A stretch of 60,452 bases of DNA from an uncultured Mycoplasmatota bacterium (GCA_946498375.1 CAMMOI010000002.1:1-60452); one strand, 5' to 3'; numbered from the stretch's first letter, positions 30,580-33,571 are shown. The notes: a model not told the origin generated them from the sequence alone. Made by a program: numbers and translations.

Positions 30580-30608
30580 TTGAAAAAAAATTATATCTTT
30601 GCTATCAT
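30580..30608 (+). promoter_or_regulatory. sigma-A-type promoter for the A2 subunit gene
   Basis: -35 TTGAAA (30580-30585), 17-nt spacer, -10 TATCAT (30603-30608). Confidence 0.5.
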
Positions 30609-30632
30609 TATTAACATAAAGGAGGTAATAAA

Positions 30633-31280
30633 ATGTCTGAAAATAAGAAAGGGAACACTGTTTTACTTACAGTCATAGCAATAGCTACTTTGCTTGTTGC
30701 TATAGTAGGTGCAACATTTGCATACTTCACTGCTACTGTACAAGGTAATAATGAAGCTAGTTCTGTAGTGGTTACTACTGCATCATTAGGAAGTATCACT
30801 TATGAAAATGGTACAGAATTAAAATTAGAAAATGCTTACCCTGGAGCATATAGTAATGAGATTACATTCACTATTTCTGCAGCAGACAATACTGTAGAAC
30901 TTCCATACGAAATTAAATGGGTAAATGTAACAAATGATTTTAATCCTGCAACTGAATTAGTTTATAGATTAAGTGGCGAAACTGATGGTTCAGGAACATT
31001 AGTAGATTTAACTGATGCTGATGGTTATGATGCTGAAACTCAGTATGCTACAGTTCCATCTGCTCCTACAACTATAGGTGCTGGAAGTTTATCTATAGGA
31101 GGAGAAACTCATACTTATACTATGCAAGTTCACTTCAAAGAAACAGCTGCTGATCAAAATAGTAACCAAGGAAGATCATTTGCTGGAAAAATTGAAGTAA
31201 CTACTAGTGGATCTGACAACTTATATTATACTGATAGTGCTAGATCTGGTACAACAGAAATGCCAACTAGTGCATATTAG
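30633..31280 (+). CDS. SipW-type signal peptide, TasA/camelysin-like secreted subunit, type A copy 2
   Basis: RBS AAAGGAGG. TVLLTVIAIATLLVAIVGATFAYFTAT. Collinear with 18322..18972 with one 1-residue indel. Shares HFKETAADQNSNQGRSFAGKIEV and a tail ending PTSAY. Confidence 0.75.
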   Translation: MSENKKGNTVLLTVIAIATLLVAIVGATFAYFTATVQGNNEASSVVVTTASLGSITYENGTELKLENAYPGAYSNEITFTISAADNTVELPYEIKWVNVTNDFNPATELVYRLSGETDGSGTLVDLTDADGYDAETQYATVPSAPTTIGAGSLSIGGETHTYTMQVHFKETAADQNSNQGRSFAGKIEVTTSGSDNLYYTDSARSGTTEMPTSAY

Positions 31281-31284
31281 TGAT

Positions 31285-31309
31285 AAAAAACTGCTTTGGC
31301 AGTTTTTTT
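31285..31309 (+). terminator. rho-independent terminator between the A2 gene and sipW
   Basis: AAAAAACTGC / GCAGTTTTTT stem with loop TTTG, followed by a T-run. Confidence 0.7.
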
Positions 31310-31325
31310 GTTGGCTAATTTTAAC

Positions 31326-31354
31326 TTGTAATTTTATAAACCTTAATATATAAT
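31326..31354 (+). promoter_or_regulatory. candidate promoter for the SipW-like gene
   Basis: -35 TTGTAA (31326-31331), 17-nt spacer, -10 TATAAT (31349-31354). Confidence 0.45.
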
Positions 31355-31380
31355 CATAATAGAATAAGGGAGTGTCTAAT

Positions 31381-32109
31381 GTGAAAAAAAGAAATATTTT
31401 AAAAAATATTTTGAAGTTTGTTACCGATGTTATATCTTGGACGTGCCTATGTTTATTAATTTTAATTGGTGTATGTATGGTATGGTATTTTATTTCTGCT
31501 AAAATATATGAATCTAAAGGAGAAAAATACGAACCATATTTCTCATTATACACTATAATAAGTCCAAGTATGGAACCTAATATAAATGTATATGATGTTA
31601 TATTAGATACTCGTGTAGATGATCCAAAAACTATTAAAGTAGGGGACGTTATTACTTTTATATCAACTGGTTCATTAAGTAATGGAATGACTATAACTCA
31701 TAGAGTAGTCGAAGTTATTGAAAATGAAGACGGTTTGTTTTTTCGAACTAAAGGAGATAATAATCAAACACCTGATGCAGCTTTAGTTTTATCAGAAAAT
31801 GTATTAGGAAAAACACTTTTAAAAATCCCTCAATTAGGTAGAGTACAGTTTTTATTAGCAAATAAAGGAGTTTGGTTTATTGTAATATTAATCCCAGCAT
31901 GTGGAATTATAATTTATGATTTAATTAAACTATTTGAAACTTCTAAAATTAAAACTAAAGTAGAAAATGTTTTAGCAAAATCTGAACCTGAGGAAGACCC
32001 AGAAAAAATTCAAAGAGAGAAAAAGCGTAAAGAAGAACTAAAAAAAAGGTTGCAAAAAGAAATTGAATTTGAAGAAGATGATGTTGAAGAAGAAAGAAAA
32101 TGGGAGTAA
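31381..32109 (+). CDS. sipW: archaeal/ER-type signal peptidase I (SipW-like) with a long charged C-terminal tail
   Basis: N-terminal TM segment. Catalytic Ser motif SPSMEP, His motif ITHRVV and TKGDNN. Second TM segment, then about 60 residues of a K/E-rich tail. GTG at 31381 lies 8 nt after AGGGAG; the track start is GTG 31372. Confidence 0.8.
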   Translation: MKKRNILKNILKFVTDVISWTCLCLLILIGVCMVWYFISAKIYESKGEKYEPYFSLYTIISPSMEPNINVYDVILDTRVDDPKTIKVGDVITFISTGSLSNGMTITHRVVEVIENEDGLFFRTKGDNNQTPDAALVLSENVLGKTLLKIPQLGRVQFLLANKGVWFIVILIPACGIIIYDLIKLFETSKIKTKVENVLAKSEPEEDPEKIQREKKRKEELKKRLQKEIEFEEDDVEEERKWE

Positions 32110-32211
32110 TATTAATTACTTCTTTTTATGGTTGTATGAATTGGAAAAATTTATATTTTATGATAAAATAATAAATATATAGAATAAAGAGTCTGAAATG
32201 GAGGTTGCAAT

Positions 32212-33546
32212 TTGAAAAATAAAATGTTATCAAAATTTTTAAAACGTCAAATATTTGCAATCTGTTCATGCTTAGTAATTGCTATTTTTGGAACTGTATT
32301 AGTTTCATCAGCTCTTTTTACTACTTCAGTTTCTAGTACCAAAACCCAGGCAGTAAAAACAGGTAATTTTGATGTAAATTTTACTAATGGTTCTGTTATT
32401 AGTGAAGACGTTTTTATTTCTTCTGATAGTGACGGCCTTGCTAGTGATGGTTATACGTTTACCGTAAAAAATACTGGATCTATTGAATCAACATATGAAA
32501 TTTTATTAACTAGAAATACAAGGTCTTCTCGTTCTGATTCGAACTTAATAGATAATCAATATATTAGGTACTCACTTGATGGTGAGGCACCTAAGAGCTT
32601 AACTTCTAGTGAAATAAAAAGTGGATCGGGAGATGAATATACTGTATATCGTATTAAGACAGTTAATTTATCAGCAAGTAGTACAAAAGATCATGTTCTA
32701 AGAGTTTGGATTGATCAAAATGTTGCAACATCTACTGCTATTAATAAATATGTTGATCTTTCTATTCAAGTACAAGCAATTGCAACTGATGTTGGCAGTG
32801 ACTTAGGATATCCTTTTGTATTTACAGGAAGTGAGCAAACATTTACTGTTCCATATACGGGAACTTACACAATTAGTGCAAGTGGCGCAGAGGGAGCTAT
32901 CGGTAATTTATATAATAAAGAAACTACATTAAAAGGAGGCAAGGGAGCAACTATTAGTGCTGATTTTGAATTAAATAAAGGAGATGTTTTGCACATTATT
33001 GTTGGTGGAAAAGGAAGCACTACGACGGGAACTTCTTCAAATGGAGCTGCTGGAGCCGGTGGTGGAGGAAGCTTTGTCTTTAAAGAAATTTCTTCTATAA
33101 GTAATTCTAATTATCAATTTACTAAAGGATCAAAACGCTATGATGTACTTTTAGTGGCAGCCGGTGGCAGTGGAACAGGCGATATAGGATATGGCTATGA
33201 ATATGCGGGATATGATGGTAATGCTGAGGATTTTTATAGTCCTTCTAATTTTAGAACATTTAGTACAACCACAGCAAGTCCTACCGGTTCTACAAGTTCT
33301 TCAGGAGTTTTAGGAATACGACAATATATATCTTATGATTTAAAAGGTGGACGTTATTCGGTAAATGGAAGTACTTGTCTAGGTGGCTATGGTGGTGGCA
33401 ACTGTAATACTAGTTATAGAAGTTATGGTGGTGGCTGGGCTGGAACTAGTTATGTTACTTACTCATGGTCACAGGGAGATAATACTGTAGGAATAAATGG
33501 TAATAATGAAGGCAATGGTTATGTTAATATTAAATTAAAAAGCTAA
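32212..33546 (+). CDS. secreted modular protein: SipW-type signal, TasA-like module, then a glycine-rich domain
   Basis: TTG start 7 nt after GGAGG. Signal LVIAIFGTVLVSSALFTTSVSS. Module YTFTVKNTGSIESTYEI. The C-domain has GAEGA, GGKGA, VGGKG, GAAGAGGGGS, AAGGSGTG, GGYGGGN and YGGGWAG runs, as in the PF12810 / ALK-LTK-type glycine-rich domain (from memory). Confidence 0.6.
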   Translation: MKNKMLSKFLKRQIFAICSCLVIAIFGTVLVSSALFTTSVSSTKTQAVKTGNFDVNFTNGSVISEDVFISSDSDGLASDGYTFTVKNTGSIESTYEILLTRNTRSSRSDSNLIDNQYIRYSLDGEAPKSLTSSEIKSGSGDEYTVYRIKTVNLSASSTKDHVLRVWIDQNVATSTAINKYVDLSIQVQAIATDVGSDLGYPFVFTGSEQTFTVPYTGTYTISASGAEGAIGNLYNKETTLKGGKGATISADFELNKGDVLHIIVGGKGSTTTGTSSNGAAGAGGGGSFVFKEISSISNSNYQFTKGSKRYDVLLVAAGGSGTGDIGYGYEYAGYDGNAEDFYSPSNFRTFSTTTASPTGSTSSSGVLGIRQYISYDLKGGRYSVNGSTCLGGYGGGNCNTSYRSYGGGWAGTSYVTYSWSQGDNTVGINGNNEGNGYVNIKLKS

Positions 33547-33571
33547 GAGTGAATATTTCTTAGCTTTTTTA
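33541..33571 (+). terminator. rho-independent terminator
   Basis: AGCTAAGA / TCTTAGCT stem overlapping the stop codon, followed by TTTTTT. Confidence 0.7.

Follow-up and report, generated by a model that had tools for sequence, protein, structure and literature searches.

The DNA analysed here (hereafter, the window) is a complete 60,452-bp metagenomic contig from an uncultured Mycoplasmatota bacterium (GCA_946498375.1, CAMMOI010000002.1), with a GC content of about 25% and open reading frames (ORFs) that read cleanly under genetic code 11. Near its centre, three genes lie on the plus strand: (i) A2, which codes for a small subunit of the TasA/camelysin family; (ii) sipW, which codes for a signal peptidase; and (iii) B2, which codes for a larger, glycine-rich modular protein. 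The system belongs to the already known TasA/BsaA-SipW type of fibre system and does not represent a new kind of system (PMC9674648, PMC10151520, PMC11580942, PMC9245690). An earlier annotation made from the sequence alone (the first-pass annotation) had reported a trio of subunit, peptidase and modular protein at this place, and the three ORFs are indeed found there, together with the following signals:

30580-30608, plus strand: promoter-like site of A2 (TTGAAA, 17 nt, TG-extended TATCAT)
30633-31280, plus strand: A2, 215 aa, TasA/camelysin-family putative fibre subunit, with predicted cleavage at A30↓Y31 and a predicted donor strand at residues 31-49
31285-31309, plus strand: intrinsic-terminator-like hairpin after A2 (A-tract, CTGC/GCAG stem, T7; dG -13.8, z -4.4)
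31326-31354, plus strand: promoter-like site of sipW (TTGTAA, 17 nt, TATAAT)
31372-32109, plus strand: sipW-like gene for an endoplasmic reticulum (ER)/archaeal-type signal peptidase I, 245 aa, with a probable start at GTG 31381 (242 aa)
32212-33546, plus strand: B2, 444 aa, with an A-like domain (residues ~28-192) and an ALK/LTK-type glycine-rich domain (GRD; residues ~216-442)
33537-33570, plus strand: terminator-like hairpin overlapping the B2 stop codon and followed by a T-run (dG -13.5, z -5.4)

The GTG start of sipW is favoured by a ribosome-binding site (AAGGGAG) and by the gene calls in the sister contigs L001 and L002. In this text, L-numbers designate related loci or contigs recovered in the searches and P-numbers designate proteins or protein clusters from the protein search, while the peptidase content of the clade is read from this contig and the related loci.

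All four signals that had been proposed at first pass (a promoter and a terminator for A2, a promoter for sipW and a terminator at the end) are present. For both hairpins, 0 of 200 shuffles fold as stably. A consensus terminator scanner missed the two of them, since its rule asks for at least 3 G-C pairs. Between sipW and B2 there is no comparable hairpin (best dG -5.6). Promoter-like sites occur in the window no more often than in shuffles (15 vs. 18.4 ± 4.2 expected) and, in consequence, they carry weight only through their conservation across loci. Thus, the CTTGT and TATA.T blocks of the sipW site are invariant, at fixed spacing, in eight related loci, and the TTGA.../TGnTAT pattern recurs at the same spacing upstream of A genes in L014, L015 and the window itself (A1, a paralogue of A2). 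Similarly, the hairpin AAACTGC..GCAGTTTTT follows an A gene in L014, L015/L025 and L024 as well. As read from the sequence, these signals fit a monocistronic A2 and a sipW-B2 unit: A2 would be transcribed alone from its own promoter up to the hairpin, while sipW and B2 would be transcribed from the conserved promoter, probably as one unit. Such an arrangement, with an insulated A2, may provide a stoichiometry of much subunit, little peptidase and little accessory protein, for which the abundance of TapA and SipW (PMC10151520) offers a comparison.

Signal peptidase and TasA-family subunits

By its sequence, the peptidase is of the ER/archaeal type and not of the LepB type, as the first-pass annotation had proposed from its SPSMEP, THRV and TKGDNN blocks (residues 64-69, 109-112 and 126-131, respectively). 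It scores 103.9 bits against TIGR02228 (archaeal/ER type; cut-off 51.85) and 20.4 bits against TIGR02227 (bacterial P-type; cut-off 47), so that the profile search does not place it with the ordinary P-type LepB enzymes. Its best sequence matches in the PDB are human SEC11A and SEC11C (1.7e-7), and its residues S66, H110 and D129 align with the Ser, His and Asp blocks of SEC11A, which predicts a catalysis of the Ser-His(-Asp) type instead of a Ser-Lys dyad. Against the equivalog model of the Bacillus SipW (NF046067) it reaches 104.5 bits and misses the cut-off of 190; hence, it is SipW-like, not an orthologue of the Bacillus SipW by the NCBI rule. No other S26/S24 peptidase occurs in any window ORF of at least 100 aa, and it is indeed the only signal peptidase to be seen in the window.

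The peptidase has two hydrophobic (transmembrane) segments. After the second one there is a cytoplasmic-looking tail of 55 aa (residues 191-245; 31942-32106) with 16 K/R and 19 D/E, whose length probably varies among loci, since the orthologues have total lengths of 204-292 aa. The C-terminus of SipW has, in B. subtilis, a signalling role of its own.

As for its candidate substrates, SipW is known to process TasA and TapA, and TasA to polymerise by donor-strand exchange (PMC9674648, PMC10151520, PMC9245690). The first-pass annotation had counted six family members in the window, four of them 7-12 kb from sipW. All six were recovered by tblastn and the distances hold, but one of them is a pseudogene, which leaves five intact genes. 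In addition to A2 and B2, the members are:

18322-18972, minus strand: A1, a paralogue with 74% identity to A2, accompanied by a promoter-like site and a hairpin of its own
19112-19720, minus strand: A', a second type of subunit (46% identity to A2), above the Pfam Peptidase_M73 cut-off
22754-24259, plus strand: B1, with an A-like N-terminal domain and a widespread, uncharacterised C-terminal domain (one homologue annotated DUF6273)
40792-41403, minus strand: sixth member, a pseudogene related to A' (70% identity) and interrupted by a TGA and a TAA in frame

Profile comparisons identify the A proteins as divergent but true homologues of the TasA family. To begin with, A' matches the Pfam family PF12389 (Peptidase_M73) with 31.7 bits (gathering score 22.5), as do 21 of 46 family members at E <= 1e-3, and no other family recurs. 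A tblastn search of A' against 72,556 plasmids returned only four B. thuringiensis genes, annotated as 'TasA family protein', at 83% query coverage. The A profile aligns with one such B. thuringiensis protein (WP_000053748.1) over 167 columns (hhalign 95.4%, E 2e-8), with the motifs GATFAYFT/GGTYAYFS, NAYPG/NLKPG and DQNSNQG/DQNMFQG facing each other. This B. thuringiensis protein matches, in turn, the TasA fibre (8AUR) and the TasA crystal structure (5OF1) at about 1e-13 (5e-14). The identity of the A proteins to the Bacillus TasA-family proteins is only ~25%.

Through the same alignments, the mature N-terminus of TasA can be transferred to A2, which would then be cleaved at A30↓Y31. TIGR04088, the model of the SipW-cognate signal, gives 16-18 bits for all four A-type genes, slightly less than its cut-off of 19. 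The AlphaFold model of A2 (mean confidence, pLDDT, 79.5) has a confident beta-sandwich core, and residues 31-49, directly after the predicted cleavage site, are disordered (pLDDT <50). The donor strand is likewise disordered in models of the BsaA monomer (PMC11580942). A BsaA-like isopeptide "lock" was also considered and rejected: the Asn-Glu-Lys triad of the BsaA "exchange and lock" (PMC11580942) is absent from the alignment of 46 A sequences, in which no Lys or Glu is invariant or near-invariant and, hence, such a lock is not expected.

Modular proteins, gene order and neighbourhood

The modular proteins belong with the A family, in agreement with the first-pass annotation, for they share both the A fold and the N-terminal signal region. 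In profile-profile comparisons, the N-domain of the B2 family matches the A family with hhalign 95.8% (E 8e-9), that of the B1 family does so with 96.2% (E 2e-9), and the two N-domains match each other with 99.0% (E 3e-18). The first ~190 residues of both B families are thus homologous to the whole A subunit, cleavage region included. In the B2 family, an invariant Ser32 and a near-invariant Ala34 align with positions -3 and -1 of A2, and the B2 model has a confident beta-core with low confidence (pLDDT <50) at residues 29-51. A search with the isolated N-domain of B1 (residues 1-200; 22754-23353) matched the yeast adhesin Flo11 (26.4 bits vs. a cut-off of 25); this match disappears with the full protein and was discarded as spurious, being probably an artefact of composition.

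The heads of the two proteins are different. The C-terminal 230 aa of B2 (residues 216-442) match PF12810 with 32.7 bits (gathering score 24.5), and the top 21 PDB matches of the head in Foldseek are all ALK/LTK GRDs (E 5e-11 to 3e-7, probability 1.0, 20-23% identity). The same fold is found in 83 viral proteins (E <= 1e-3), many of them phage tail-fibre, minor-tail or virion proteins, and in the bacterial proteins P0140 and P0142 a GRD is joined to the N-terminus of a type IV pilin (PF07963). The glycine-rich head would appear to move between fibre scaffolds, which fits a portable binding module. A literature search gave nothing relevant on bacterial GRD proteins or on PF12810 on pili. The head of B1, on the other hand, belongs to a very large, uncharacterised family with >3,400 matches, few of which have an N-terminal PF12389. 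As a separate observation, homologues of the B2 head with 51-52% identity (P0138, P0140, P0142) are attached either to such pilin N-termini or to a bacterial Ig-like domain (PF16403).

The locus had been described at first pass as a parallel, with rearrangement, to tapA-sipW-tasA. This stands for B2 in terms of position and presumed role only, and not as homology to TapA, whose model did not turn up among the general Pfam/NCBIfam matches of B1 and B2 (no search aimed at TapA was made).

Linkage of A, sipW and B genes in one cluster is found in L006, L008, L010-L016 and L024-L026, as well as in the window. Full-length homologues of B2 are rare: the protein search found 17, all in metagenome-assembled genomes (MAGs) named "uncultured Bacilli bacterium"; among the MAGs with B2 homologues, two are named Goat_Rectum and several Lapin. 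SipW is 68-76% identical in the loci with a full-length B2 (L006, L008, L010-L016) and 50-52% in L024 and L026, while across loci the B proteins are 47-56% and the A proteins 38-55% identical. The following arrangements can be distinguished:

L012: four A genes, sipW, B
L013 and L014: two A genes, sipW, B
L016: sipW, B
L024: five A genes, sipW
L026: yfhO, and next to it two A genes and sipW
L006: yfhO and A in one direction; sipW and B in the other
L015 (4415-11320) and L025 (4413-11348): contiguous divergent cluster, with A, sipW and B in one direction and yfhO, A and A in the other

Since about nine loci of uncultured gut Bacilli keep the order A-sipW-B, the functional coupling of the peptidase and its putative substrates is well founded. 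The clusters of L015 and L025 have the same flanks as the window, namely an NMT1-ABC transporter on one side and beta-lactamase-like, FemAB and two-component genes on the other. In the window, yfhO and A2 are separated by a block of 8.3 kb (22.3-30.6 kb) with a helix-turn-helix (HTH) gene, B1, the gene for pyruvate:ferredoxin oxidoreductase, recG and a DUF975 gene. Given that the cluster is contiguous in L015 and L025 and is split here by this block, the dispersal of substrates around one peptidase, to which the first-pass annotation had drawn attention, reflects a local, recent and lineage-specific break-up of an ancestral cluster and not a designed hub-and-spoke layout. In L010, the gene after B (3574-4383, minus strand) codes for a protein of 269 aa with collagen repeats and a C1q-like domain, and is followed by resolvase and Mob_Pre genes.

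Two genes for glycosyltransferases (GT) take part in a minus-strand run (17320-22288) in which yfhO, A', A1 and GT2 follow one another:

19769-22288, minus strand: YfhO-family GT-C glycosyltransferase adjoining A'/A1, candidate O-glycosyltransferase of the fibre
17320-18252, minus strand: GT2 polyprenyl-phosphate sugar synthase, PgfS/CsbB-like, candidate partner of YfhO

The YfhO protein matches PF09586 with 457 bits, and its best NCBIfam matches are PgfM2/PgfM1 of S. mutans (8e-69), with a score far below the PgfM2 equivalog cut-off (232.7 vs. 1500 bits). The best NCBIfam match of GT2 is PgfS (1.6e-88), again under the equivalog cut-off (296.9 vs. 500 bits). Both proteins are, judging by these scores, homologues of the Pgf enzymes at the level of the family. 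Linkage of yfhO to A genes is also seen in L006, L015, L025 and L026, and the A proteins contain 22-30% Ser+Thr, with S/T-rich C-terminal tails. This neighbourhood suggests glycosylated fibre subunits; the glycosylation of teichoic acids, which YfhO homologues also carry out (PMC12041528), is an equal alternative.

Proposed assembly model and rival explanations

The preferred reading, to which a probability of roughly two in three is given, is that the locus constitutes the core of an extracellular fibre system of the TasA/BsaA type in an uncultured, low-GC gut bacterium of the Bacilli, with a fibre that is built by donor-strand exchange and has head-bearing minor subunits. In such a system, A1, A2 and A' would be exported by the Sec pathway through an atypical signal peptide of the SipW class, and the membrane-bound ER-type peptidase would cut behind the conserved (G/S)-A-T-F/Y-A motif, which in A2 places the cut at A30↓Y31. 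Cleavage would release an N-terminal strand (~residues 31-49) that is disordered in the monomer, and the fibre would grow by donor-strand exchange, with each freed strand entering the beta-sandwich of a neighbouring subunit. As B1 and B2 share with the A proteins the signal, the donor-strand region and the A-like domain, and have in addition a globular head behind these, they would be minor subunits that either join the fibre or cap/nucleate it, and that display a binding module, which in B2 is the ALK/LTK-type GRD. Their role would then resemble the one suggested for TapA/AbpB, or that of FimH-like tip adhesins. Finally, the neighbouring YfhO (GT-C) and PgfS-like GT2 may attach O-linked glycans, outside the membrane, to stretches of the subunits that are rich in Ser/Thr.

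A number of results weigh against this reading. Firstly among the sequence matches, A2 (20.4 bits) and A1 (18.3 bits) stay just under the gathering score of PF12389 (22.5), and all A-type members stay just under the cut-off (19 bits) of TIGR04088 (A2 18.1, A1 17.9, A' 16.2, pseudogene 16.2), a model that does not match B1 or B2 at all. The searches of A2 (phmmer) and of the A-alignment profile against PDB sequences gave nothing relevant, which is why the homology to TasA was reached through the B. thuringiensis intermediate. Foldseek matches of the A2 model are weak and mixed (best E 3e-3, TM ~0.3): they include chaperone-usher pilins (FimF/G, CfaB, PapA), CanA, AbpA and carbohydrate-binding modules, and TasA itself is not among the top 50. 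This result of a predicted model is consistent with a pilin-like beta-sandwich, but it is not proof of it. Moreover, B1-type genes lie in other genomes usually far from any sipW, the glycosylation is linked to the fibre only by position, and L026 has a second ER-type peptidase near its cluster, which weakens the exclusivity of the enzyme.

The last point leads to the question of whether this enzyme serves its small-genome lineage as general type I signal peptidase. It would then be one of several ER-type copies with general duties, would merely be located in the cluster, and would have the A and B proteins among its many substrates. This possibility, which is compatible with a fibre, is a minority view here, though one to be taken seriously. 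The two enzymes of L026 are encoded 7 kb apart (11292-11906 and 18123-18674) and both pass TIGR02228 (94.4 and 71.9 bits); the second one turned up when a P-type candidate was sought in that locus, and their presence implies that ER-type enzymes may do general secretion in the lineage. In the 60-kb window no P-type peptidase was found, and other exported proteins encoded there (beta-lactamase-like, 16270-17310; VanY, 10451-11638) need some signal peptidase. Archaeal TasA-like pili, furthermore, rely on a generic peptidase (PMC9245690). Nevertheless, 60 kb is ~5% of a genome of ~1.2 Mb (as estimated from a relative with a 1.19-Mb contig), so that the absence of LepB says little. Besides, sipW always lies between A and B genes and has its own promoter, conserved across loci of 50-76% identity, and the homologous Bacillus enzyme is specialised (PMC9245690, PMC10151520). 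The dedicated peptidase that the first-pass annotation had proposed is no more than plausible.

Other explanations depart from the fibre itself. The A and B proteins might be monomeric, glycosylated proteins of the cell envelope that do not polymerise, with an uncleaved N-terminal helix as anchor or a camelysin-like release, and with YfhO/GT2 decorating either these proteins or teichoic acids. The weak fold match of A2 to fibre subunits favours such proteins, their single N-terminal hydrophobic segment could serve as membrane anchor, the conserved linkage to yfhO fits their glycosylation, and in C. perfringens BsaB does not assemble beyond the dimer (PMC11580942). The full-length profile homology of the A proteins to TasA-family proteins, however, includes the cleavage motif and a conserved motif of the interface type; the conserved association of A and B with sipW suggests that these proteins are cleaved; both models, of A2 and of B2, show a disordered N-terminal strand; and tandem arrays of up to 4-5 A paralogues (L012, L024) are typical of fibre subunits. 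Envelope monomers are, on this balance, clearly improbable. Far less credible still are N-termini of class III (type IV pilin-like), of the form KKG↓NTVLL plus hydrophobic helix, in which case a prepilin peptidase would process the proteins and their N-terminal helices would mediate assembly. It is true that the A and B N-termini look superficially like pilins (basic residues, a Gly, then ~22 hydrophobic residues) and that GRD heads occur elsewhere on true type IV pilin N-termini. But there is no Glu at +5, the window has no gene for a prepilin peptidase, a pilus ATPase or a platform protein, the N-terminal region of the A proteins finds its counterpart in the signal peptide and cleavage motif of TasA by alignment, and the neighbour of the A and B genes is an ER-type signal peptidase I; this candidate was accordingly rejected.

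Within the preferred reading of a TasA-type fibre, a wider proposal can be put forward, which, taken as a whole, is more doubtful than probable. A clade of uncultured gut Bacilli with small genomes would make a fibre that (i) is assembled by donor-strand exchange; (ii) has subunits O-glycosylated, outside the membrane, by the co-located PgfS/YfhO enzymes; (iii) bears, at its end or along its length, a homologue of the cytokine-binding GRD of ALK/LTK as adhesive head; and (iv) depends on a peptidase that serves several unlinked TasA-like proteins. The head, swapped among TasA-like, type IV pilin and phage tail-fibre scaffolds, would be a portable module for ligands on host or microbial surfaces.

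Comparison with known systems is instructive as regards the common ground and the differences. The B. subtilis tapA-sipW-tasA operon likewise has a gene for an ER-type SipW between those for the major fibre subunit and the accessory protein; the two systems have in common subunits of the TasA/camelysin family, with a beta-sandwich (in the predicted model, as regards A2) and a G-x-T-(F/Y/W)-A↓x-F cleavage motif, and an N-terminal strand that, here too, probably takes part in donor-strand exchange. In contrast to B. subtilis, the genes run here in the opposite order, from the major subunit through sipW to the accessory protein, and a separate promoter and terminator serve the major subunit. Three A paralogues are intact and a further copy is a pseudogene, and each accessory protein joins an A-like domain to a head (GRD or DUF6273-like). 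The peptidase has the charged tail of 55 aa, and yfhO is linked to the cluster. In the sipW-bsaA-bsaB-bsaC operon of C. perfringens (PMC11580942), sipW is accompanied by genes for several distant relatives of TasA and for a larger protein that has a binding-type domain (vWA in BsaC), and the donor strand, here a predicted one, is disordered in the monomer models of both systems; here, by contrast, the Asn-Glu-Lys triad is not conserved, the large protein is itself a TasA-like subunit fused to a head, and there are no type IV pilus genes nearby. The TasA/BsaA family is reported to be widespread, often accompanied by a signal peptidase and with several paralogues per operon (PMC11580942).

In archaea, AbpA/AbpB and the CanA/AbpX proteins of Pyrodictium have TasA-like jelly-roll subunits assembled by donor-strand exchange, and AbpA (7UEG) and CanA (9HDI, 9H8B) are among the fold matches of the A2 model, albeit weak ones (E ~1e-2). 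For AbpB, a function in initiation has been suggested, with adhesin domains at the distal end (PMC9245690), and the same role is suggested here for the B proteins. Archaea use a generic signal peptidase, whereas in this bacterium the peptidase is encoded inside the cluster. With the glycine-rich (TG) domain of ALK/LTK and the glycine-rich tail-fibre proteins of phages, B2 shares its C-terminal 230 aa, which match both PF12810 and the solved GRD structures; unlike in ALK/LTK, the domain is joined to a TasA-like pilin domain, within a surface-fibre locus of a bacterium and outside the context of a receptor kinase. Lastly, the Pgf cluster of S. mutans, which codes for protein O-glycosylation enzymes (PgfS, PgfM1, PgfM2) together with their adhesin substrates (Cnm/CnaB/CbpA), also places a GT2 and a YfhO-family GT-C beside Ser/Thr-rich surface proteins (PMC12041528, PMC5856776), while the scores obtained here are far under the equivalog cut-offs, there is no PgfE epimerase, and YfhO enzymes may act on teichoic acids as well.

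What distinguishes the present system is, hence, its head-bearing TasA-like minor subunits (one of them with an ALK/LTK-type GRD), its gene order and its recurrent YfhO/GT2 neighbourhood, none of which is described for the TasA family in the literature searched. Work on TasA-type fibres has been confined almost entirely to Bacillus, a single Clostridium and some archaea, and this locus extends the TasA machinery to a conserved, compact cluster in uncultured Bacilli of the animal gut. It offers a test bed for (i) the entry of accessory subunits into Gram-positive donor-strand-exchange fibres; (ii) the ligand of a bacterial glycine-rich domain; and (iii) the specialised versus general use of ER-type signal peptidases in reduced genomes.

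Other genes of the window

The sixth family member has two stops, one at a conserved Trp (TGG to TGA) and one at a conserved Gln (CAA to TAA). In the sister contig L001 (99.86% identical), the corresponding gene (18581-19192) has TGG at the Trp site and retains the TAA, its product being called as 174 aa. The copy in the window is therefore a decaying gene and not a sign of recoding. Genetic code 4, which the TGA at a Trp position might suggest, was rejected for the same reason and because all other ORFs are intact under code 11. A tRNA-Leu(CAA) gene is located directly downstream of the pseudogene (40610-40696).

Divergent from B1 and adjoining yfhO, there is a gene for an XRE-type HTH_3 protein of 86 aa (22334-22594, minus strand). 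Speculatively, and by position only, this protein could be a SinR-like regulator of the fibre genes. In Bacillus, SinR is likewise encoded near tapA-sipW-tasA. Elsewhere in the window, the ORF of leucyl-tRNA synthetase (50186-53011, 941 aa) has a match to a NUDIX domain at residues 380-500 (1.9e-9), an unusual insertion for this enzyme.

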